Source of the DNA: Helicobacteraceae bacterium
GTDB taxonomy: Bacteria; Campylobacterota; Campylobacteria; Campylobacterales; SZUA-545
Assembly (NCBI GenBank): GCA_031260125.1
Contig: JAIRKM010000035.1
Location: 6,130-70,129 of the forward strand
DNA: 64,000 nt
Reading direction: 5' to 3'
A model generated the notes under the pieces. The model saw nothing but the letters and a program-made list of their open reading frames with translations, was not told the DNA's origin and ran no database searches. Within the stretch, counting starts at the first letter, position 1. Each line of letters opens with the position of its first letter. Made by a program: the position numbers and the translations under genes. Of the stretch, positions 12,725-41,159 are shown piece after piece.

Positions 12725-15364
12725 CTACTGCTTGAGTTGAAGCAGCGTGTTGAGCAGTTGATCGCTGGTGGTGATCGTCTTGGAGCTTGCCTGATAACCG
12801 CGCTGAATAATGATCAGGTTGGTCAGCGCCTTCGAGAGATCGACATTGCTCATCTCAAGCGTCGATGGCGCGATCTCCCCTCTGTTTGCCGTACCTGCCA
12901 TGCCAATTGTGGCGCCGCCGGAGTTTGGCGCTTCCGAGTACAAATTGCCGCCTAGCGCCTTTAGCCCTTCATTATTGACAAACGTCGCGATTGCCACCTG
13001 ACCGAGATTGAATTGCTTGCCATTGCTAAACTCGCCGATAATCATGCCCGTCTGATCGACGCTCGTTTCCTGCAAAAACCCGCCTGCATAGCCGTCCGCG
13101 CCCGTGCCGTTGCGTACGGCGCTTGTCTCCGCAAAGCTAGTAAGTCCGGAGAACGATCCGCCAAGCCCAAAATCCAACCGCAAAATCTGTCCGCTTGCCG
13201 ATCCTGTGTTGGGATTGAAGACAACCGATGGAGGCGAAGAGGATTGAACGCTTCCGTCTAAATTGAAGCGTATCTCGCCGAAAGTGGGAAATTCAAATGT
13301 CGTCGGTTCCGCCGCGTCCACATACCACTGCCAAACAGTCGGATCGTTGTTGTTGTAGCTTGTGGAAGTCTTGCGGAAGTTAAACGTAAGCTGATGTTTC
13401 GCGCCGCTGCTGTCGTAGACCTCAACCCCCGCTCTGAAGGTAGCGGCGTTAAGCGTGCCGCTCATGCTGTTGCTCCCGGGCGATATGGGCGCGCCCATCG
13501 CCATCGCTTTGGTAAATAGAGTGTTGCCCGCGTTCATGCCGATCTGCTCCTCGCCCAGACTCGGAGAGGCGTTGTAGCCCGTAACGCTGAGATCAAACGA
13601 TTCGCCCTTGTTGTTTCTGATTTCGATCTGCCCGTACTCGTTCACAATCACCGTCGAATCGATCGGAATAATGAAATTCAGCGGATCGCCCGCGTCGTCA
13701 AGCGCGTCCTGATAGAGATTTACCAGCTCTTGCACGTTGGTAAAGTAGTAAACGTCATTTTTCTTAAACTGTCCGGAAGCGCTGGCCACGCCATCGGCTC
13801 CGCCTAGCGGCGTAAATATGTCCTGCAATCTCCCCTGCGAAGAGCCCGCCGCCGGAGTGCCGCCGCCAGCCAAACCAACCGCCGCCGAGCCAATGACGCC
13901 AAAGCTATCGCTGATCTGTCCGTTGTCCGCGTCCCATACGATCCGAGAGGTGCCGCCGTGTGTTTCGATCGTGTTGTTAACCTGCTCAATAAGCCCTTCG
14001 ATCGTCTGAAAGGTATTGACGCCCGTTTGCCCGTAGGTCAGCGTCAGCGGCGCGATCACAGAGCCGGTGGCGACTGGATTGAAGGTAAACGTAACCGTGT
14101 CGCCCACGTTGAGAAACGCCTGCTCTCCCGCGCTGTTGAGCGTCCAGTGCAGCCCCTGATCGCTGTCCGCCTTAGTAATGTCGAGCGTACTTTGGAAGTT
14201 GTTGTTTATATAGTCGTTGATACTCTCCTGACTTGAATCGCGGTAAACAAACTTTCTCGTTTCGCCCAGATTGCCGATCTCTATCGCCAAGCCTTCGCCC
14301 GCCTTCAGCAAAAACGCGTTGCCCTCGTCGTTGAACATCTCGCCCAAATCGTCCGCGCCTATAAAGGCATTTACGTTTGTCTTAAAGGTTTTGGACATAA
14401 ACGTGCCGTAGGTTACCGGCTCTAACAGCTCACAAAGAAGCGAGCTTGTACTCATGCTCTCATACACGGCGGTGATGTGCTGGGCGGCGGCGATTTGCCC
14501 GTCGCCTGTGAGAAGCACCTTGTTGTCATAGACGCCCGTAGAATCTTTGATACGGCTGTTGATCTCGTCGAGCAGGTCCTGCATCGTTATGAAATATCCG
14601 TCAGTTTTGGTAGAGCCAACGCCGTAGGTAAACGTATATGTGGCGGAGGACTGCGTCAGCGTGCCGCCCACGTCAAAAGTTCGTGTCAGTTCCAGCGTAA
14701 GGAGGTCGTTGTTCCTTTTCAGACCCAGCGGCTCGCCATCATAGCTGTAGAGTGATCCCACATCGTCGCTGAGGTTGATCGTGCTTTGTGAGGGAGAGCG
14801 CTCGGAGCTACCCAGTGTGCTGCCCGCATTCAGATTCGCGCACACCCTGATATTCGCCGATGGTTTAGCCGGAACGGTCATCGCCGGATCGATCAGGATA
14901 TTTTCGATGCCCATTGAGCTATCAACGTTAAACTGCTCGTCCGCGATCCAGCCTTGCACGATCAGGCCGTTTGGATTGACGAGGTTGCCGTTTGCGTCAA
15001 AGGTAAAGTTTCCAGCCCGCGTATAGCTGTAAGTTTTGCCGCCATCGGCGCTGACGATAAAAAATCCTTCGCCGTTGATCGCCATATCGGTGTTTTTGTC
15101 CGTCGCCTGCGTTGCGCCTTGTAAATGGATGCGCTGAACATTGGCGACGCCTACGCCGCTACCAATCTGAAGGGCGTTGCGCCCGCCCAACTGCCCCTGC
15201 GAAGCTGTCGATGGCTTCAGTGTCTGAAGCAGCGTATCCTGAAAGTTGGTGCGCGAATACTTAAACCCGTACGTATTCACGTTCGCAATGTTGTTGCCTT
15301 CAACGTCCATAGCGACCTGATGGGAGATCAGCCCGCTGACGCCGCTGAAAAGAGAACGCATCAT
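12725..15364 (-). CDS. flgE: Flagellar hook protein FlgE (large epsilonproteobacterial form)
   Basis: N-terminus MMRSLFSGVSGLISHQVAMDVEGNNIANVNTYGFK and C-terminus LTNLIIIQRGYQASSKTITTSDQLLNTLLQLKQ; 879 aa with large central insertion. Confidence 0.95.
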   Translation of the reverse strand: MMRSLFSGVSGLISHQVAMDVEGNNIANVNTYGFKYSRTNFQDTLLQTLKPSTASQGQLGGRNALQIGSGVGVANVQRIHLQGATQATDKNTDMAINGEGFFIVSADGGKTYSYTRAGNFTFDANGNLVNPNGLIVQGWIADEQFNVDSSMGIENILIDPAMTVPAKPSANIRVCANLNAGSTLGSSERSPSQSTINLSDDVGSLYSYDGEPLGLKRNNDLLTLELTRTFDVGGTLTQSSATYTFTYGVGSTKTDGYFITMQDLLDEINSRIKDSTGVYDNKVLLTGDGQIAAAQHITAVYESMSTSSLLCELLEPVTYGTFMSKTFKTNVNAFIGADDLGEMFNDEGNAFLLKAGEGLAIEIGNLGETRKFVYRDSSQESINDYINNNFQSTLDITKADSDQGLHWTLNSAGEQAFLNVGDTVTFTFNPVATGSVIAPLTLTYGQTGVNTFQTIEGLIEQVNNTIETHGGTSRIVWDADNGQISDSFGVIGSAAVGLAGGGTPAAGSSQGRLQDIFTPLGGADGVASASGQFKKNDVYYFTNVQELVNLYQDALDDAGDPLNFIIPIDSTVIVNEYGQIEIRNNKGESFDLSVTGYNASPSLGEEQIGMNAGNTLFTKAMAMGAPISPGSNSMSGTLNAATFRAGVEVYDSSGAKHQLTFNFRKTSTSYNNNDPTVWQWYVDAAEPTTFEFPTFGEIRFNLDGSVQSSSPPSVVFNPNTGSASGQILRLDFGLGGSFSGLTSFAETSAVRNGTGADGYAGGFLQETSVDQTGMIIGEFSNGKQFNLGQVAIATFVNNEGLKALGGNLYSEAPNSGGATIGMAGTANRGEIAPSTLEMSNVDLSKALTNLIIIQRGYQASSKTITTSDQLLNTLLQLKQ

Positions 15365-32575: not shown

Positions 32576-33625
32576 ATGAAAAAATACGATCGCCGCATCG
32601 TCGTCATTACGCGGGAGACGCGGCTAGAAAAGGTGTTGATAAGCCAGAATACCCGCTCTCAAGCGAAGTTTTACATCCATTCACTGGGCGGTGATTTTGA
32701 CGATTACGACATGGAAGATCGCCAATATCACGCTTCGGTGTTGGATACGCGCCAACGCTTGGAAGAGATAGGCGCTATTCAGGTATTAGATCGCAAATAC
32801 CTGCCCAATTTTATTTTCGCGCCGGAGGATATTGTGGTTGCGATCGGTCAAGATGGGCTGGTGGCAAACACGATCAAGTATCTAAACGATCAACCGATTA
32901 TAGGCGTCAATCCCGATCCCGATCGCTGGGACGGCGTACTCCTGCCCTTCACGCCGAAAGACGCGGCGAAAATCGCCGAGGACGTCATAACGCGGCGGCG
33001 AAAAACGCAAGAGGTGACTATGGCGAAGGCGCGTATTCAAAACGGACAGGAGTTGCTGGCGGTCAACGATTTCTTCATCGGGCAACGCACCCATGTCTCC
33101 GCTCGTTATATTATCAAGCACGGCGGGCTTAAAGAGCCGCAATCATCAAGCGGCGTTATCGTCTCCACGGGACTAGGCTCTACGGGCTGGATGAAAAGCA
33201 TCCTCGCCGGCGCCTCGCGCATATCCGCTTCTGTTATCGGACATCCTTACGGCGGACTACAGGAAAATGATCGTCTTGTAGAGGAGGAAAAAAATGTGTT
33301 TTTTAGCAGGTTAGATTATAAACCGCCATTAAAAGCGCGGCAAAAGAAACAAAGCTACGGCTTTTCAGAGCTATCGAGCGTCATTGGCAAATGGAAGAGC
33401 GAAGAGCTGATCTTCGCTGTGCGCGAACCATTTCCAAGCAAAACGACGGGCACTACGCTGGTTTTTGGAAAAGTTTCGGCAAAGGAGCCCTTGCGCATAG
33501 AATCTCTAATGGGTGAAAACGGCGTGATCTTCAGCGACGGCATAGAGGGCGATTTTCTCGCCTTCAATTCAGGCGCCGAAGCGCTAATCACCATCGCGGA
33601 TAAGCGTGGGCATATTGTTGTATAG
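32576..33625 (+). CDS. NAD-kinase-fold (PpnK/DAGK_cat-like) protein, atypical
   Basis: Degenerate NadK motifs: GQDGLV (for GGDG), NDFFIG (for NE[IV]), STGLGSTGWMKS (for DG..T.GSTAYS); 349 aa with unique N- and C-terminal regions; 20 nt downstream of the flotillin gene. Confidence 0.5.
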   Translation: MKKYDRRIVVITRETRLEKVLISQNTRSQAKFYIHSLGGDFDDYDMEDRQYHASVLDTRQRLEEIGAIQVLDRKYLPNFIFAPEDIVVAIGQDGLVANTIKYLNDQPIIGVNPDPDRWDGVLLPFTPKDAAKIAEDVITRRRKTQEVTMAKARIQNGQELLAVNDFFIGQRTHVSARYIIKHGGLKEPQSSSGVIVSTGLGSTGWMKSILAGASRISASVIGHPYGGLQENDRLVEEEKNVFFSRLDYKPPLKARQKKQSYGFSELSSVIGKWKSEELIFAVREPFPSKTTGTTLVFGKVSAKEPLRIESLMGENGVIFSDGIEGDFLAFNSGAEALITIADKRGHIVV

Positions 33626-33714: not shown

Positions 33715-33743
33715 TTGACAATCTCTATCGACTATTGTAAGAT
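33715..33743 (+). promoter_or_regulatory. Sigma70-like promoter of the cysM operon
   Basis: TTGACA-17 nt-TAAGAT, about 50 nt upstream of the GTG start. Confidence 0.45.
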
Positions 33744-33793: not shown

Positions 33794-34696
33794 GTGCATC
33801 TGCCCGATTTAATAGGTAATACGCCCCTGCTGGAGCTCTCAAACATAGCCTCCAAAAGGGCGGGAGTCTCCATTTACGCCAAAGCGGAATTCTGCAACCC
33901 GTCAGGTTCCGTCAAGGATCGAGCCGCCAAAGCCATGCTCCTTGATGGCATTGCAAAAGGGCTGCTGACAAAAGGCAAAACGATCATCGACGCCTCAAGC
34001 GGCAACACCGGCATCGCTTACGCTATGCTAGGCGCCGCGCTTGGGTATCCGGTGGTGATATATCTGCCTGCCAACGCCAGCGAAGAGAGAAAGAGCTTTC
34101 TGAAGCGCTATGGCGCGGCGATCGTAGAGACCGATCCGCTGGAAAGTTCCGATGGCGCGTTTCTGGCGGCGCGTAAAGAAGCGGCTGCCCACCCCGATAG
34201 ATATTTCTATCCCGATCAGTACAACAACGATGCCAATTGGAAGGCGCATTATCAGACGACCGCTCCAGAAATATGGAAGGCGACAGAGGGTAAGATAACG
34301 CACTTTATAGCCGGCACGGGGACTTCCGGCACGCTGATGGGAACTAGTAGGCGGCTCAAGGAGCTTAATCCCAATGTAAAGGCGATCGCCATTCAGCCCG
34401 ATTCGCCTTTTCACGGCATAGAAGGAACAAAACACATGGCTTCGACGATCAAACCCGGCTTCTATGACGAGAGGTTTGTGGACGGAATCGTTGAGGTAAG
34501 CACGGAGGAGGCGTACGCCGCGGCGCGGCTTCTGGTCAGAAAAGAGGGGGTATTTGCCGGCATCAGCGCCGGCGCCAACGTGCAAGGAGCGCTGAAACTT
34601 GCCGGCGATCTGCCCGATGGTTCGCTGATCGTTACGGTGCTGGGCGATAGCGGTTCTCGATATCTATCGGAAAAATTCTGGGAGGCGGATCTGTGA
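33794..34696 (+). CDS. cysM: PLP-dependent cysteine synthase, CysM-type (uses the CysO thiocarboxylate carrier)
   Basis: GTG start after GGAGAAAG; PLP-lysine motif SGSVKDRAA; 300 aa; operon context with ThiS-like carrier and JAMM protease. Confidence 0.85.
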   Translation: MHLPDLIGNTPLLELSNIASKRAGVSIYAKAEFCNPSGSVKDRAAKAMLLDGIAKGLLTKGKTIIDASSGNTGIAYAMLGAALGYPVVIYLPANASEERKSFLKRYGAAIVETDPLESSDGAFLAARKEAAAHPDRYFYPDQYNNDANWKAHYQTTAPEIWKATEGKITHFIAGTGTSGTLMGTSRRLKELNPNVKAIAIQPDSPFHGIEGTKHMASTIKPGFYDERFVDGIVEVSTEEAYAAARLLVRKEGVFAGISAGANVQGALKLAGDLPDGSLIVTVLGDSGSRYLSEKFWEADL

Positions 34697-35112
34697 TCGC
34701 CATTGACGCGCAGCAACTCAGCGCTATAAGAGGCGAAGGGGAAGCGGCGTATCCGCACGAGTGCTGCGGCGCGCTGCTAGGAAAGATCGATGGCGACACA
34801 AAACGAATCGCCGCCATCTTGCCAATCGCAAATGCCCGCGAAGAGGAGGAGCGCTATCATCGCTTCACCATCACGCCGGAGGATATGATGAGGGCGGAAC
34901 TAGAAGCGCGGAAGATGAAACTGGACGTGGTAGGCTTCTACCACTCCCATCCGGATCATCCGGCGACACCATCTGAGTACGACAGAGAGCATGCTCTGCC
35001 CTTCTACTCTTACGTGATCGTCGCGGTGGAGAAGGGACGATCGGCGCGGCTGACCAGTTGGGAGCTGACGGAGAACAGAGACAAATTTAAGGAGGAAACA
35101 ATATGGCAATAA
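34693..35112 (+). CDS. JAMM/MPN+ metalloprotease (Mec/QbsD-like) that trims the sulfur-carrier protein
   Basis: JAMM motif HSHPDHPATPSEYD (HxHx7Sx2D) and upstream E (AYPHECCG); 139 aa; 4-nt overlap with cysM. Confidence 0.85.
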   Translation: MIAIDAQQLSAIRGEGEAAYPHECCGALLGKIDGDTKRIAAILPIANAREEEERYHRFTITPEDMMRAELEARKMKLDVVGFYHSHPDHPATPSEYDREHALPFYSYVIVAVEKGRSARLTSWELTENRDKFKEETIWQ

Positions 35113-35393
35113 CGGTGCTTGTGCCTACGGCTCTAAGAGCCTTTACGGATCAGAAGTCTGAAGTGGCGGTAGAGGGCAACACCGTCGCAAGCGCAATAGC
35201 GGCGCTGGCGGAAGCCTACCCGGACATAAAACGCCACCTGTATCAGGACGAGGAAAATCTGCGTTCGTTCATCAACGTCTTCGTGGGAGATACAAACATA
35301 AAAAACCTCAACGGTCTCAACACCGCACTATCCGACGGATCAGAGATAATGCTTGTGCCAGCCATAGCCGGAGGATGCCGCACGTATGTCTGA
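35103..35393 (+). CDS. ThiS/MoaD-fold sulfur-carrier protein (CysO/QbsE-like) with C-terminal extension after the Gly-Gly
   Basis: 96 aa; ends ...LVPAIAGG-CRTYV, i.e. GG followed by Cys plus 4 residues (compare QbsE GG-CF); overlapped by both flanking genes. Confidence 0.75.
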   Translation: MAITVLVPTALRAFTDQKSEVAVEGNTVASAIAALAEAYPDIKRHLYQDEENLRSFINVFVGDTNIKNLNGLNTALSDGSEIMLVPAIAGGCRTYV

Positions 35394-36558
35394 AAGCGTT
35401 GTGCAAAATCGGGAACTTGCCGACCTCTCCAACGAGGAAATCTCCCGCTACAGCCGTCATCTGCTTCTGGCGGAAGTCGGACTTGAAGGGCAGCGGTGGC
35501 TTAAATCGGCGCGTGTATTGATCGTGGGAACAGGCGGGCTGGGCGCGCCCGTAGCCTTATATCTAGCCGCGGCGGGCGTGGGAACTCTGGGTATAGCGGA
35601 TTTTGACTTTGTGGAAGAATCCAACCTTCAGCGTCAGGTGATCCACTCCACGCGTGATATTGGAAGACCCAAGGTCGCCTCCGCTTTAGATCGCATACGC
35701 GGTATAAACCCAAGGATCAAGGTGAATATTTACAACACCGCCCTCAACAGCGGCAACGCGCTGGAGATCATCAAGGATTACGACGTAGTTGTGGACGGAA
35801 CGGATAACTATCAGACCAGATATCTGATAAACGACTCGTGCGTGCTTTTGGGCATTCCCAACGTTTACGGCTCCATATTTCAGTTTGAGGGGCAGGCCTC
35901 GGTGTTCTACGCAAAAGAGGGACCGTGCTACCGATGCCTCTACCCAGAGCCGCCGCCCGTCGGTTTAGTACCGTCCTGCGCCGAAGGAGGCGTGGTGGGT
36001 GCGCTCCCGGGCATTGTGGGCAGCATTCAAGCCAACGAGACGATCAAGCTGATCGTCGGCGGCGGCGCTCCTCTGATTGGGAGGCTTCTTCTTTTTGACG
36101 CATGGAGGGCGAAATTCAGAGAGCTTGCCATCGGCAAGGATATAAACTGCCCAATATGCGGAAAGGAGCCGTCGATTCACGAGCTTATCGATTACGAGCA
36201 GTTTTGCGGCTTGAAGAAAACGGAGGAAGACGATCCGATCGAAACGATCGGCGCGATAGAGCTTAAAGATCGCATCAATCGCGGCGAATCGCTTCAGATC
36301 GTCGATATCCGAGAGCCTCATGAACGGGCGATCGCCAAGTTTCCGCAGGCAAAAGCGATTCCGCTTGGGCAGATGGCTCGGCGCATAGACGAGTTTGATC
36401 CCGCGCTGGATACCGTGTTTGTTTGCAAAATAGGACAGCGCAGCGTTTTTGCGATCAGGGCTTTGCGGGAAGCAGGCTACAAGGGACGCCTGCTCAACCT
36501 AAGAGACGGGCTGAACGCCTGGGCAAAAGAGGTGGACAGTTCGCTGCCCATTCTTTAA
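35386..36558 (+). CDS. moeZ: E1-like adenylyl/sulfurtransferase MoeZ (ThiF/MoeB domain + C-terminal rhodanese)
   Basis: Nucleotide loop VGTGGLGAP, CxxC pairs (CYRC... CPIC), C-terminal rhodanese with active-site Cys (VFVCKIGQRS); 390 aa. Confidence 0.85.
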   Translation: MSESVVQNRELADLSNEEISRYSRHLLLAEVGLEGQRWLKSARVLIVGTGGLGAPVALYLAAAGVGTLGIADFDFVEESNLQRQVIHSTRDIGRPKVASALDRIRGINPRIKVNIYNTALNSGNALEIIKDYDVVVDGTDNYQTRYLINDSCVLLGIPNVYGSIFQFEGQASVFYAKEGPCYRCLYPEPPPVGLVPSCAEGGVVGALPGIVGSIQANETIKLIVGGGAPLIGRLLLFDAWRAKFRELAIGKDINCPICGKEPSIHELIDYEQFCGLKKTEEDDPIETIGAIELKDRINRGESLQIVDIREPHERAIAKFPQAKAIPLGQMARRIDEFDPALDTVFVCKIGQRSVFAIRALREAGYKGRLLNLRDGLNAWAKEVDSSLPIL

Positions 36559-36585: not shown

Positions 36586-37530
36586 ATGGCAGAAAAGGCG
36601 TTAAACGCATTGCGGCAGGAAGCCGCCTACCAACTCGCGGATATAACGAAAACCGCGCCTCAGTTCGGGTCTCTTACCCCGCGTTACCTGACCAGACTGC
36701 TGGAGTTCAAGGGGCTTGACGCGGGCATCTATCGGGTCAATCGGGTTGAGGAAGGAGAGACGCCTTTAGACGTGCTGTGCAGTCAGGATCCCAAAAAGGT
36801 CCAAATACCGCAGGGCTTCGTCGATTACGAAAAGAAACCCAGAGAGTATCGTCTCAACTCGATCAGCGTCATCATCAACGTAGATACGAAAGTCTCCGAC
36901 GTTTACAGCTCTCCGTTCGATCAGATCAAAGAGCAGCTTGGACTCGCCATTGAGAGTCTCAAAGAGCGGCAGGAGAGCCAGATTATCAACAGCGACGATT
37001 ACGGGCTTTTGAAAAACGCCGCCGATTCGCAGCGGATTCAGACCAGAGTCGGGCGTCCTATGCCGGACGACCTAGACGAGCTTATTACCAAAGTGTGGAA
37101 AGACCCGAGCTTCTTTCTCGCCCACCCGCGGGCGATAGCGGCTTTTGAGAGGGAATGCACCAGAAGGGGCGTACCGCCGGTTACGACGAATATCGCGGGC
37201 GGAACGTTTATCGCGTGGCGCGGCATCCCTATTATCCCAACCAACAAGCTTTTTGTGGATGGGTTGAAGGAGAGCAAGGCAAAAAGCGGCAAAACCAACA
37301 TTCTGCTGGTACGCACCGGCGAGGCAAAGCGCGGCGTGATCGGGCTTTTCCAAAACGGTCTTCCGAACGAGCAGTCGCGTGGGCTGTCGGTGCGCTTCCG
37401 CGGCATCGATGACAATGGGATCGCGTCTTATCTTCTCTCCCTTTACTGCTCGGCAGCGGTACTGGCCGACGACGCTCTGGCGGTATTGGAAGACGTAGAG
37501 GTCGGCGAATACTATGACTACCCTCTATAG
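36586..37530 (+). CDS. Putative Family 2A encapsulin shell protein (HK97-fold nanocompartment)
   Basis: Inferred from context: 314 aa soluble protein, no enzymatic motifs; directly upstream of, and 17-nt overlapping with, a cysteine desulfurase that carries a long disordered N-terminal extension. This is the defining arrangement of Family 2A encapsulin operons. Sequence-level family membership not verified. Confidence 0.45.
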   Translation: MAEKALNALRQEAAYQLADITKTAPQFGSLTPRYLTRLLEFKGLDAGIYRVNRVEEGETPLDVLCSQDPKKVQIPQGFVDYEKKPREYRLNSISVIINVDTKVSDVYSSPFDQIKEQLGLAIESLKERQESQIINSDDYGLLKNAADSQRIQTRVGRPMPDDLDELITKVWKDPSFFLAHPRAIAAFERECTRRGVPPVTTNIAGGTFIAWRGIPIIPTNKLFVDGLKESKAKSGKTNILLVRTGEAKRGVIGLFQNGLPNEQSRGLSVRFRGIDDNGIASYLLSLYCSAAVLADDALAVLEDVEVGEYYDYPL

Positions 37531-38995
37531 TGATTGGGAGCGCCCCGCCGGACTTCCCAGCGCGAGCGAGCTTGCCGCCCTTGCCGCCTCCTACTTTCCG
37601 GAGTTCTACAAGGCGGAAAACGACGCAAAAACGATAAAGAGCGCGTCGTTGCCGGCGTTTGACGCCCCGCTGGAAAAGGGTATCAGTCTGGGCGCATCTC
37701 CGGCTTACTCTCCGGCGGTTCTTCCAAAAGAGGGCGGCGTGGACGCAAAAAAAACCACCGCCTTTTCAACCCATCGCGTTGGGCGGCGGACTCTTGAGGC
37801 GATCCGCGCGGACTTTCCCATACTCTCCGAAAAGATAAACGGCAGAGAGCTGATCTGGTTTGACAACGGCGCCACCACGCAAAAGCCGTCGGCGGTTATT
37901 GATCGGCTCAAAACCTTCTACGAACACGAAAACTCCAACGTTCACCGCGGCGCTCACGAATTGGCAAGCAGAGCCACCGACGCCTACGAAGAGGCAAGAG
38001 CCGCCGCCGCGAAGTTTATCGGCGCGCCATCGCCCGATAACATCATCTTCGTCCGCGGGACGACCGAAGGGATCAATCTTGCGGCTCAAGCCTATGTCAA
38101 GCGGCTTCTTAAATCTGGAGACGAGATCGTTCTCACCCTTCTGGAACACCACGCGAATATCGTGCCGTGGCAGCTTGTCGCGGAAGAGACCGGCGCGCTT
38201 TTAAGGGTTGCGCCTGTGGACGACACCGGTCAGATCGTCCTCTCGGAGTACGCTCGTCTTTTCAACTCCCGTACCCGATTCGTAGCGGTGGCGCACGTGT
38301 CAAACGCGCTTGGCACGATCGCTCCCGTGGCGGAAATGATACAGATCGCCCACTCGCAGGGCGCGCGCGTCCTTGTTGACGGAGCGCAGTCAGTTCCCCA
38401 CATGCCGATCAACGTGAGCGATCTTGACGCGGACTTTTTCGTCTTTTCGGGACACAAAATCTTTGCGCCGACGGGAATTGGCGTTCTCTACGGAAAAAGC
38501 GAGGTGCTAGAGGCGGCGAAACCCTATCAGGGCGGCGGCAATATGATCGCCGATGTAACCTTTGAGCGCACCCTCTACCGCAAAGCGCCGGAAAAATTTG
38601 AGGCCGGCACGGGCAACATCGCCGACGCAGCGGCGTTAAGCGCGGCGCTGAACTACGTAAGCGAGATCGGCATAGAGAGTGTCGCCGCGTGGGAGCACGA
38701 GCTTCTCAACTATGGAACGAAAGAGCTTTCCAAAGTTCCGGGGCTTAAACTTATTGGAACGGCCTCGCAAAAAGCCGCGATCCTCTCGTTCGTGCTGGAG
38801 GGGCATAGCCTTGAAGAGGTTGGAAGTTATCTAAATAAAAAGGGCATCGCTGTCCGCACGGGACATCACTGCGCCCAGCCGATACACCGCCGTTTCAATC
38901 TTGAGGGAACGGTACGCTCCTCTTTGGCGTTTTACAACGCGCCGGAGGAGATAGAGGCTATGGCGCAAGCACTCCACGAGCTGGCGCGGCGTTAA
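37514..38995 (+). CDS. Cysteine desulfurase (SufS/CsdA class) with about 90-aa disordered A/P/S-rich N-terminal cargo-loading-type extension
   Basis: 493 aa vs about 405 for SufS; N-terminal MTTLYSDWERPAGLPSASELAALAAS...ASPAYSPAVLPKEGG is low-complexity; then canonical fold with PLP-lysine (SGHKIF) and active-site Cys (GHHCAQP). Confidence 0.85.
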   Translation: MTTLYSDWERPAGLPSASELAALAASYFPEFYKAENDAKTIKSASLPAFDAPLEKGISLGASPAYSPAVLPKEGGVDAKKTTAFSTHRVGRRTLEAIRADFPILSEKINGRELIWFDNGATTQKPSAVIDRLKTFYEHENSNVHRGAHELASRATDAYEEARAAAAKFIGAPSPDNIIFVRGTTEGINLAAQAYVKRLLKSGDEIVLTLLEHHANIVPWQLVAEETGALLRVAPVDDTGQIVLSEYARLFNSRTRFVAVAHVSNALGTIAPVAEMIQIAHSQGARVLVDGAQSVPHMPINVSDLDADFFVFSGHKIFAPTGIGVLYGKSEVLEAAKPYQGGGNMIADVTFERTLYRKAPEKFEAGTGNIADAAALSAALNYVSEIGIESVAAWEHELLNYGTKELSKVPGLKLIGTASQKAAILSFVLEGHSLEEVGSYLNKKGIAVRTGHHCAQPIHRRFNLEGTVRSSLAFYNAPEEIEAMAQALHELARR

Positions 38996-39488: not shown

Positions 39489-41159
39489 ATGACTATATCT
39501 GTCAAATCAAGACTTATGACGTTGGTGATCGTAGGTATTGCCGGCGTCTCTCTGACCGCCGCGATCGGTTATATTAACGCCGTACGCGACGAGGCGGCGA
39601 TGGACGATATGTACCACGATCGGCTTATGTCCGTTATGCAGATACTCCAGTTCAAATACGCCATTACCGAGGTGAACAAGCGCAGCTATCAGCTTGCCGC
39701 TTTCTCGCACCTTCTTCCGCCCGATCGGTACACGACGGAAGCGCGGCGCATGCTCGAACTCCATGAAACGGCGTTAAAGCTGGCGCAGGACAACGTTGAT
39801 GCCTTTGGGCGCTCGGCGATAGACGGCGAAAGCAGGAAGATGTGGGACAGCTTTGAAACGCAATGGAGGCGGTGGAAGGAAACCGAGAGTGAAGCGAAAC
39901 GGTTCGTTGAAGAGCGCATAACAGCCCCCTCAGCCGCTTCAATGAGCGAAATATCCCGCTACCTGACGGAAGAGAATTTCAAAAAAAGAGCGCTGACTCA
40001 AGAGCTAACGGCGATGGTTGATAAGTTCGGCGATCTCAAGCGGGATGGGGCTCGCCGAAGCTTTGACGAGGCGATCGGCGCGACACGCAATATGATCAAG
40101 GTAAACATTGGCGCGTTTGTTCTCGCTATCACGCTGATCGGACTCATCGCGTGGTCGATCTTCCGATCCGTTATCAAGCCGATCCGCTATACCCGCAATC
40201 TGGTGGTGCGAATAGCAAACGAGCAGAATCTCACGTTGCGCGTCGATCACAGCGCCGGCGATGAGATTGGCGAGATGGTCGCGGCGTTTAACCAGATGGT
40301 CGAGAAGATTCAACGTTCGGTGGTCGCGATTAACGATCGGGTGGAACTAGTCAACAAGGAGGTCGTCAGCTTCTCAAAGGAAGCGGAATCGGTCGCTCTG
40401 GAATCGCAGGCGCAAAGTACAGCCGCAAGCTCAATGGCGGCATCGGTGGAGGAGATGACGGTAAGTATCAGCTCCGTTTCCGACAACGCCTCCGACGCGC
40501 AGAAGGTGGCGCAAAACGCGGGCGAAATCAGCGGTCTTGGCAGTCAGATCATCGATAAAACGTCGCGCGAAATGGACGTGATGGTAGAGATCGTCTTGCA
40601 GACATCGCAGGTTATTCAGACTCTTGGCGAAGAATCGCATCAAATCAACAGCGTCGTGCAGGTGATTAAAGATGTCGCCGATCAGATAAACCTGCTGGCT
40701 CTCAACGCGGCGATAGAAGCGGCAAGGGCGGGCGATCAGGGCAGAGGTTTCGCGGTCGTTGCCGACGAGGTGCGCAAACTTGCCGAGTGTACGTCAAAGT
40801 CGATCGACGACATTACAGCGATGATCAATAAAATCCAAGCGAGCGCAAGCGAGGCGGTTGAAGCGATGGATAAGGTTGTCCATTGTGTGGAGCAGGAGCA
40901 GAAACTCGCGAAGGACGCCGGTGAAAAGATGCGCCATATCCACGATCAGACAAAAACCGTCTCCGGCGCGATTGACGAGATTTCCAACGCTCTTAAAGAG
41001 CAGAGCCTCGCCAGTCAGGATATTGCCAAAAACATCGAAAAGGTGTCGCAGATGACCTGCAAAAACAGCGAATCGGCAGACGCCGCCGCCGCAAACGCCA
41101 AACAACTAGGGCTGCTCGCGCGCGAGGTAAAAGAGACGCTTTCGCGTTTTAAGGCGTGA
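39489..41159 (+). CDS. Methyl-accepting chemotaxis protein (4HB-type periplasmic sensor, HAMP, MA domain)
   Basis: Two TMs flanking a helical periplasmic domain; signalling-domain core [32 protein letters not shown]; 556 aa. Confidence 0.92.

Follow-up and report, generated by a model that had tools for sequence, protein, structure and literature searches.

A six-gene operon on the forward strand of a 64,000-nucleotide stretch of Helicobacteraceae DNA (contig JAIRKM010000035.1; hereafter the window, in whose numbering all coordinates are given) encodes a Family 2A encapsulin shell protein and a SufS-type cysteine desulfurase, preceded by four genes that correspond, by homology, to the component list of the CysO-type protein-thiocarboxylate route to cysteine of Mycobacterium tuberculosis. 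The identities of the genes, their intact catalytic motifs, the tight packing of the operon, and a gene linkage conserved across phyla together point to a system in which the shell and its desulfurase probably store sulfur, and in which the CysO-type module of the same operon may draw the stored sulfur back to cysteine. There is nothing unusual about the locus as a Family 2A encapsulin, this family being curated and recognized both in close relatives and in Campylobacterota; the new part, by the literature found, is the conserved joining to a carrier-protein thiocarboxylate pathway, together with a much shortened loading tether.

The original prediction had placed here a Family 2A nanocompartment, made up of a 314-aa protein without enzyme character and an overlapping desulfurase gene with a low-complexity N-terminal extension, in a cysteine-metabolism operon. 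Both open reading frames are found where it put them, with the 17-nt overlap (37514-37530) that it described, and the features of the pair are the following:

36586-37530, + strand: Family 2A encapsulin shell protein, 314 aa with an ATG start, recognized by NF041162 and PF19307 and aligned to solved shells.
37514-38995, + strand: probable cargo cysteine desulfurase, 493 aa with an ATG start, SufS-type catalytic domain (TIGR01979) at aa 94-493.
37514-37792, + strand: predicted N-terminal cargo-loading extension, aa 1-93, non-globular and without a Pfam or PDB domain.
37550-37606, + strand: putative loading motif 1 (GLPSASELAALAASYFPEF), aa 13-31, with a predicted helix at 17-26, counterpart of the published LARLANEFFS.
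37703-37729, + strand: conserved island 2 (AYSPAVLPK), aa 64-72, clade-specific and a candidate second shell-contact motif.

The shell gene, which has a strong AAGGAG ribosome-binding site 7 nt upstream, encodes a protein that scores 485.8 bits with NF041162, the NCBIfam equivalog model of the Family 2A shell (cutoff 380), aligned over residues 9-312 of 314, and that matches the SrpI-like Pfam family PF19307 at 1.3e-95; no homology to any enzyme family was found. In PDB sequence comparisons, the protein aligns near end-to-end, from residue 3 to 314, with the Acinetobacter shell 8T6R (E=2.4e-116) and near end-to-end with SrpI 6X8M (E=1.3e-109), both determined by cryo-electron microscopy, and with the mycobacterial Mmp1 shells at E ~1e-99 (5e-99 for Mmp1), the PDB matches including 9KSL and 8WOL. 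The identity to the solved shells is ~55-59% by tblastn (~59% with Acinetobacter and 55% with SrpI), and the gap-poor alignment suggests an HK97 fold that includes the N-arm region from residue 3. This sequence evidence identifies the 314-aa product as a shell protein of the Family 2A encapsulins, and sixty copies with the HK97 fold would be expected to assemble into a ~24-nm T=1 shell, by homology to the shells from Acinetobacter, Synechococcus, and Mycobacterium. An assignment to Family 2B was considered and rejected: the model NF041163 gives 378.8 bits, below its cutoff of 400, and matches only in the C-terminal half (profile positions 207-449), alignments with Family 2B structures (9BJE and others) do not begin before residue ~56-71, and the cyclic nucleotide-binding insertion that defines Family 2B is absent. 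The NCBI record of the identical shell protein names it only a 'hypothetical protein'. An 8-aa Lys-rich insertion, LKESKAKS, is present at aa 227-234 (37264-37287) relative to the Acinetobacter, SrpI, and Mmp1 shells, and belongs to the consensus of the clade.

The start codon of the desulfurase gene lies 12 nt downstream of a GAGG located inside the shell gene. The encoded enzyme belongs to the SufS-type class II cysteine desulfurases, as originally proposed, with 536.7 bits in TIGR01979 (cutoff 475), an Aminotran_5 Pfam domain spanning residues 114-482, and a pyridoxal phosphate-binding lysine, K315 (SGHK), and a catalytic Cys453 (GHHC) that are both invariant in 35 relatives. Its best solved match is 8KG1, the encapsulin cargo Enc-CD of Mycobacterium smegmatis (E=2e-168), and the AlphaFold model has a mean predicted local distance difference test (pLDDT) of 79.9, with values mostly of 80-97 in the catalytic domain and a dip to ~40 at residues 341-364.

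The N-terminal extension of this desulfurase carries the case for its being a cargo. Every solved SufS or CsdA structure aligns only from residue 87-98 on, and for this reason the extension of ~93 residues is considered real. The original prediction of a low-complexity segment of ~90 residues rich in Ala, Pro, and Ser was therefore correct as to the extension and overstated as to its composition, since these three residues make up 36.6% of positions 1-93 vs 23.8% of the catalytic domain, a moderate enrichment and not an extreme low complexity. Residues 1-95 have no Pfam match even at E<=10 and a single chance match in the PDB (E=0.034), which argues against a SufE-like or any other known domain. 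The AlphaFold model shows one short helix (17-26) and low-confidence linkers, with pLDDT of ~40-52 at residues 31-60, and the low confidence and the indel-rich alignment are likewise in line with the disorder that had been predicted. Among 72 complete relatives the extension has a median length of 140 aa (range ~65-275 aa), and an alignment of 35 relatives reveals three conserved islands separated by indel-rich linkers: island 1, nearly invariant, with the consensus GLPSxxE[IL]AALAAxYFPEF (aa 13-31 in the window); island 2, AYSPxVLPK (aa 64-72), in which P67 is invariant within a conserved block; and island 3, VGxRSLxxIRADFPIL, where the extension meets the catalytic domain. This layout resembles that of the characterized systems, in which short motifs are joined by flexible linkers (PMC10836720, PMC8049743, PMC11659603) and the cargo is loaded through its disordered N-terminus (PMC8049743, PMC11659603).

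Two loading motifs, LARLANEFFS and AASPYYFLDG, have been published for Family 2A cargos (Nichols 2021, PMC8049743), and the first of them is recognizable here, as ELAALAASYFPEF in the window cargo for ARLANEFFS in Acinetobacter. The profile of island 1 picks out PDESTIARLANEFF in the Acinetobacter desulfurase, with 1 of 500 shuffled sequences scoring as high, and DERSLAQLAQA in the SrpI-associated desulfurase, a score that none of 500 shuffles reached, with absolute scores in both cargos of 3-6 bits only. The profile of island 2 performed no better than shuffles on the same two cargos. Taken together, these are good, although indirect, grounds to regard the desulfurase as the encapsulin cargo, which would be co-translated with the shell and tethered inside it by the short linear motifs of its flexible 93-residue N-terminus. 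The tether is shorter than that of any characterized cargo (155-225 aa).

The small size of the tether also has consequences for annotation. The NCBI cargo model NF041166 aligns to the desulfurase only over the catalytic part (profile positions 217-623), because the ~216-position N-terminal portion of the model has no counterpart in this protein, and the score of 773.3 bits falls under the cutoff of 800. Since the model misses cargos with short tethers, RefSeq names the long-tether relatives as cargo proteins and the short-tether ones as cysteine desulfurases; the 613-617-aa proteins of Treponema primitia are called encapsulin cargo, whereas the 491-aa protein of Leadbettera is a 'cysteine desulfurase' only. 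This annotation gap, seen in a comparison of the window protein with the proteins P0126, P0144, and P0169, is systematic. No description of a shortened loading tether that escapes the NCBI cargo model was found in the literature searched. Such systems are consequently under-annotated in gut metagenomes, and the natural minimal tether, of 93 aa in the window and ~65 aa in some relatives, might be of use in engineering cargo loading.

The genes directly upstream of the shell gene and on the same strand bear out the prediction of a cysteine-metabolism operon:

33715-33743, + strand: promoter-like site TTGACA-17-TAAGAT, a consensus match within the 168 nt that precede the cysM-like gene, and a candidate operon promoter.
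33794-34696, + strand: cysM-like cysteine synthase dependent on pyridoxal phosphate, 300 aa, Pfam PALP at 5e-75, with the cofactor lysine motif SVKDR at aa 39-43.
34693-35112, + strand: JAMM/MPN+ metalloprotease, Mec+-like, 139 aa, Prok-JAB PF14464 at 1.2e-25, with an intact HSHPDHPATPSEYD motif (HxHx7Sx2D).
35103-35393, + strand: ThiS/MoaD/CysO-like sulfur-carrier protein, 96 aa, Pfam ThiS PF02597 at 1e-11.
35386-36558, + strand: MoeZ-like E1 enzyme, 390 aa, with a ThiF adenylyltransferase domain (1.4e-78) and a C-terminal rhodanese domain (1.2e-10).

The order is therefore cysM-like, JAMM, ThiS/CysO-like carrier, MoeZ-like, shell, and desulfurase, all on the + strand, with spacings of -4, -10, -8, +27, and -17 nt, and an independent Logan assembly reproduces both operon junctions. 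The promoter-like site is the only one in front of the six-gene block, upstream of the cysM-like gene, and constitutes weak evidence, as the scan returned 10 sites in the region vs 6.0 +/- 2.3 in shuffles; a scan for terminators downstream of the desulfurase gene gave nothing convincing. The 349-aa open reading frame at 32576-33625, with weak NAD-kinase-like matches (E ~1e-4) and without a Pfam domain, was rejected as an operon member, being absent from all related loci.

The active-site motifs are intact in all the components: the JAMM motif, the Gly-Gly of the carrier, the GxGGxG and two CxxC motifs of the ThiF domain, the rhodanese loop, and the catalytic residues of the CysM-like enzyme and the desulfurase. 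In the MoeZ-like enzyme these take the form of GTGGLG, of CYRC and CPIC as zinc motifs, and of a six-residue rhodanese active-site loop, CKIGQRS (aa 347-353). This protein aligns over its full length to the MoeB/MoeZ models PRK07411 and PRK07878, at 450-476 bits and below their cutoffs of 633-647, and matches MoeB 1JW9 and Uba4 6YUB in the PDB. Its rhodanese domain was also considered as a specific orthologue of the free rhodanese of plasmid pANL, a candidate that was rejected because the match is generic (29% identity over 77 aa). The best PDB matches of the cysM-like protein are generic O-acetylserine sulfhydrylases and CysM, with M. tuberculosis CysM 3DWG at 177 bits. The carrier ends in AIAGG (aa 87-91, with the Gly-Gly at aa 90-91) followed by a 5-aa tail, CRTYV, which implies a processing step that removes the tail; among relatives the tail after the Gly-Gly ranges from 0 to ~20 aa. 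The residue right after the Gly-Gly is a Cys (35370-35390), an encoded mimic of the CysO-cysteine adduct that is cut by Mec+-type JAMM proteases.

Thiocarboxylate-dependent cysteine biosynthesis in M. tuberculosis is reported in Burns 2005. The chemistry of CysO, CysM, Mec+, and MoeZR is established, and the source of the sulfur used by MoeZR 'remains unknown' (Voss 2011, PMC3227635). The same four protein types are found in the window with intact motifs, although the M. tuberculosis system has an unlinked moeZR, a carrier with nothing after the Gly-Gly, and no encapsulin, whereas here the carrier bears the GG-CRTYV tail and all the genes share one operon with a putatively encapsulated desulfurase.

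The spread of this linkage was surveyed in the best 80 related loci from a scan of one genome per species, with shells of 76-87% identity, by searching them with the operon proteins of the window by tblastn. Upstream sequence of at least 1.4 kb was available for 74 loci, and in 68 of these the gene immediately preceding the shell gene is a ThiF+rhodanese gene. The loci come from at least seven phyla of gut anaerobes (Spirochaetota, Synergistota, Fibrobacterota, Bacillota, Desulfovibrio, Pseudomonadota, and Campylobacterota), and all four upstream genes occur in the order of the window in 29 of the 50 loci with at least 4.5 kb available. In two loci, the module genes are found downstream of the desulfurase gene instead, all four of them in one (L064) and cysM and JAB genes before the contig ends in the other (L028), while four relatives (L025, L032, L072, and L076) are devoid of the module. 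The shell and desulfurase genes overlap in essentially all relatives. The hosts comprise Spirochaetota, Synergistota, Fibrobacterota, Bacillota (rumen Ruminococcus, Oscillospiraceae, and Lachnospiraceae), Desulfovibrio, Bacteroides, Brenneria, and a second Helicobacteraceae metagenome-assembled genome (MAG), and Treponema, other Spirochaetia, and Synergistaceae supply most of the nearest shell relatives (81-89% identity), with source names that suggest termite-gut samples. The complete genome of Leadbettera azotonutricia keeps the gene order of the window, with two unrelated genes between the MoeZ-like and shell genes.

The Ruminococcus group keeps the ThiS, MoeZ, shell, and desulfurase genes together, usually with a second ThiF gene downstream, often followed by a JAB gene. 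In four loci from Ruminococcus and Oscillospiraceae (L033, L044, L047, and L075; e.g., L044:8492-9940), the carrier and the ThiF+rhodanese enzyme form a single in-frame fusion (…IPAIAGG-APTESVLGD…EEILRYSRHLLL…), and the internal position of the Gly-Gly means that the carrier must be freed by proteolysis, like a ubiquitin precursor. Every operon protein of the window resembles its Treponema counterparts more than it does those of the two other Campylobacterota, as illustrated by the shell (85-89% vs 73-76%) and the MoeZ-like enzyme (76-80% vs 69%), a pattern of pairwise identities that would fit a lateral spread of the operon within gut communities. Five more distant loci, from pANL, Acinetobacter, Azospirillum, Variovorax, and Methylosinus, with shells of <=59% identity and cargos of ~620-730 aa, lack the upstream module genes and fit the published Family 2A operon types, namely shell and desulfurase, to which a free rhodanese and a serine acetyltransferase may be added (PMC10836720, PMC8346489, PMC8049743). 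Literature linking encapsulins with CysO, thiocarboxylates, MoeZ/MoeB/ThiF, or sulfur carriers was not found, although the supplementary operon tables of published surveys may list the architecture.

A mechanism can be proposed from these components. Homologous systems assemble T=1 shells, load the desulfurase through its N-terminus, and convert cysteine to alanine and S(0) inside the shell (PMC10836720, PMC8049743, PMC11659603). By analogy, the shell at this locus may assemble, load its cargo, and store sulfur: the encapsulated enzyme would convert L-cysteine to L-alanine and retain the sulfur as an S(0) or polysulfide pool, as in the Acinetobacter system, the shell acting as a sulfur buffer and the upstream module as a dedicated route of withdrawal. 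For the withdrawal, the JAMM protease would trim the GG-CRTYV tail of the carrier, the MoeZ-like enzyme would adenylate the C-terminal glycine so exposed, and its rhodanese domain might draw on the encapsulin, or on the desulfurase within, for the sulfane sulfur that turns the carrier into a thiocarboxylate, the hand-over from shell to rhodanese being the most conjectural step of all. The CysM-like enzyme could then turn the thiocarboxylate into carrier-bound cysteine, to be released by the JAMM protease; the use of the carrier thiocarboxylate and of O-phosphoserine as its substrates is suggested by membership at the family level only. In the desulfurase encapsulins studied so far, storage of S(0) has been demonstrated and a rhodanese of the operon proposed for remobilization; a free rhodanese occurs in about half of these operons and is the only pointer to sulfur withdrawal that the authors give (PMC10836720).

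Several observations weigh against this proposal or parts of it. The AlphaFold2 model of the shell, built with 21 homologues 80-97% identical to the query, has a mean pLDDT of 33.7 and a predicted template modelling score (pTM) of 0.23 and is uninformative as to the fold, so that the HK97 fold is predicted from sequence homology; the Family 2A call is not weakened by this, given the ~55-59% identity to solved shells. As regards the cargo, only one of the two published motifs is detectable, as AASPYYFLDG was not found in the window protein; the score in the dedicated cargo model is below the cutoff; and single motifs were insufficient for loading in M. smegmatis (PMC11659603), so that a tether of 93 aa might load poorly. 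On the side of the module, the cysM-like protein scores below the equivalog cutoffs for both cysM (TIGR01138, 334 bits vs 394) and cysK and is not closest to the O-phosphoserine enzyme of M. tuberculosis, and the Ruminococcus group lacks an adjacent upstream cysM or JAB gene, so the full pathway is not universal. Finally, sulfur taken from cysteine and put back into cysteine goes round in a futile cycle if its storage and its withdrawal are not kept apart in time or by regulation, and gene linkage is no proof of a physical hand-over of sulfur.

The last of these points leads to the principal alternative, in which the encapsulin is a self-standing Family 2A sulfur store and the upstream genes are a neighboring pathway of the same sulfur-starvation regulon, with no direct hand-over. 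That cysK, cysE, and sulfate ABC transporter genes often cluster with Family 2A loci without any physical link having been proposed speaks for it, as do the two unrelated genes that separate the MoeZ-like and shell genes in L. azotonutricia and the four relatives without the module. Co-regulation accounts less readily for the MoeZ-like gene abutting the shell gene in most of the loci surveyed despite evident lateral spread, for the 27 nt between these two genes in the window, within a chain of overlapping genes, and for the presence of an E1-fused rhodanese in the position that the free rhodanese occupies in the classical operons, and this explanation is accordingly held to be the less likely one, although a serious competitor. 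A different role of the module, as a SAMP-like, ubiquitin-like conjugation system in which JAMM, ThiS, and ThiF proteins tag other proteins, possibly the shell or the cargo, appears very unlikely. The carrier does score just above the cutoff of the SAMP1 equivalog (NF041918, 61.0 vs 60 bits), the E1 enzyme and the protease match the models of the SAMP-activating enzyme and the desampylase, below their cutoffs, and both the tail after the Gly-Gly and the carrier-E1 fusions of Firmicutes resemble the processing of ubiquitin precursors; yet the first gene of the operon is cysM-like, the E1 enzyme has an intact rhodanese sulfurtransferase loop, the Cys after the Gly-Gly mimics the CysO-Cys adduct, and the set and order of the genes agree with characterized sulfur-carrier clusters of the CysO/HcyS type (PMC3227635). 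Besides, the archaeal SAMPs are both carriers and tags, and the two roles are not exclusive.

The possibility that the 314-aa protein is the HK97 capsid of a remnant prophage, next by chance to a housekeeping SufS for Fe-S assembly, was rejected and can be taken as effectively refuted. The HK97 fold is common to encapsulins and phage capsids, and the structure prediction of the shell is uninformative in this respect, but the protein exceeds the Family 2A equivalog cutoff and aligns end-to-end with solved encapsulin shells, no phage genes, integrase, or tRNA are found nearby, and no sufBCD, sufE, or sufU gene adjoins the desulfurase gene, whose product carries an extension with a conserved loading motif and whose overlap with the shell gene recurs in essentially all relatives. 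A sulfur-storing encapsulin from which the CysO-type module would withdraw sulfur continues to be the preferred reading.

The known systems differ from the window in the accompanying genes and in the size of the tether. The Acinetobacter baumannii 118362 system (8T6R; Benisch et al. 2024, PMC10836720) shares with it the overlapping shell and cargo genes, a SufS-type desulfurase, and a motif of the ARLANEFFS type, but its operon consists of rhodanese, serine acetyltransferase, shell, and desulfurase genes, whereas the window has cysM-like, JAMM, ThiS, and ThiF+rhodanese genes and no acetyltransferase, and its loading domain of ~225 aa has five motifs, against the two or three conserved islands of the window. 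SrpI and its desulfurase from Synechococcus elongatus PCC 7942 (6X8M/6X8T; Nichols et al. 2021, PMC8049743) are similar in shell family, disordered N-terminal loading, and cysteine/sulfur gene context; nevertheless, the order on plasmid pANL is cysK, serine acetyltransferase, srpI, cyd, and free rhodanese, without a carrier protein, E1 enzyme, or JAMM protease, and the N-terminal domain of that cargo has ~225-234 aa. In M. smegmatis (8WOL, 8WON, 8KG1; Tang et al. 2024, PMC11659603), Enc-CD provides the closest solved catalytic domain and has a disordered N-terminus of 155 aa with several short motifs, sub-regions of which suffice for loading, while the Mmp1 shell is more distant from that of the window than the Acinetobacter and SrpI shells; the Mmp1 paper reports no linkage with CysO genes and does not mention MoeZ (PMC11659603).

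The nearest annotated copy from Campylobacterota is on pACIB of Aliarcobacter cibarius (NZ_CP043858.1:59670-78605), with a shell of 73% identity and the order cysteine synthase, M67/JAMM, MoaD/ThiS, (MoeZ), shell, and desulfurase, as in the window. pACIB is a mobilizable plasmid of 237 kb on which the operon is decaying, with an IS110 element between the JAMM and ThiS genes and an IS5 element that splits the MoeZ-like gene and leaves a fragment annotated as 'rhodanese-like', whereas the copy in the window is intact and chromosomal in appearance. The plasmid copy further differs in having cysE, a small hypothetical gene, and cysK downstream of the desulfurase gene, before a methyl-accepting chemotaxis protein (MCP) gene. 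In RefSeq the two pACIB genes are already annotated as Family 2A shell and cargo, and the find in the window, although correctly called as an encapsulin, is in this respect less novel than first thought, the family being a curated one.

A broader and more tentative proposal, which may be right but is less likely than not, is that in a large, laterally spread clade of Family 2A encapsulins of gut anaerobes the shell is combined with the E1-rhodanese, CysO, CysM, and JAMM components in a two-part sulfur bank, with a deposit by the encapsulated desulfurase and a specific withdrawal. In this operon and at least 68 related ones, the free rhodanese is replaced by an E1-fused rhodanese, with a carrier, a protease, and a cysteine synthase in addition. 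If true, this would supply the missing remobilization mechanism of desulfurase encapsulins, give a MoeZR-type enzyme a physiological source of sulfur, and define a short tether of two to three motifs as the minimal loading signal. The six-gene set represents a complete and testable path from stored sulfur to cysteine, and a candidate sulfur source for enzymes of the MoeZR type.

The flanks of the operon are composed of ordinary chromosomal genes, including those for an SPFH protein, the NAD-kinase-like open reading frame, an MCP, an MscS-like channel, aroB, truD, pckA, lpxD, and groEL. No mobile-element genes or tRNAs are present in these flanks within the window, and the window gave no hit in Rfam and tRNA scans, which indicates that no RNA element or tRNA-linked island is involved. 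An MCP gene follows the operon both in the window (39489-41159) and on pACIB (L083:13831-15231); since the two proteins share ~30% identity in the signaling domain only, their common position may be a coincidence. The predicted origin from Campylobacterota is supported by the NCBI label of the identical shell protein ('MAG: Helicobacteraceae bacterium') and by an epsilon-type FlgE of 879 aa on the - strand at 12725-15364 (TIGR02489, 523.6 bits vs a cutoff of 412.85), a taxonomic marker for the contig that adjoins a PseD-like flagellin-modification gene.

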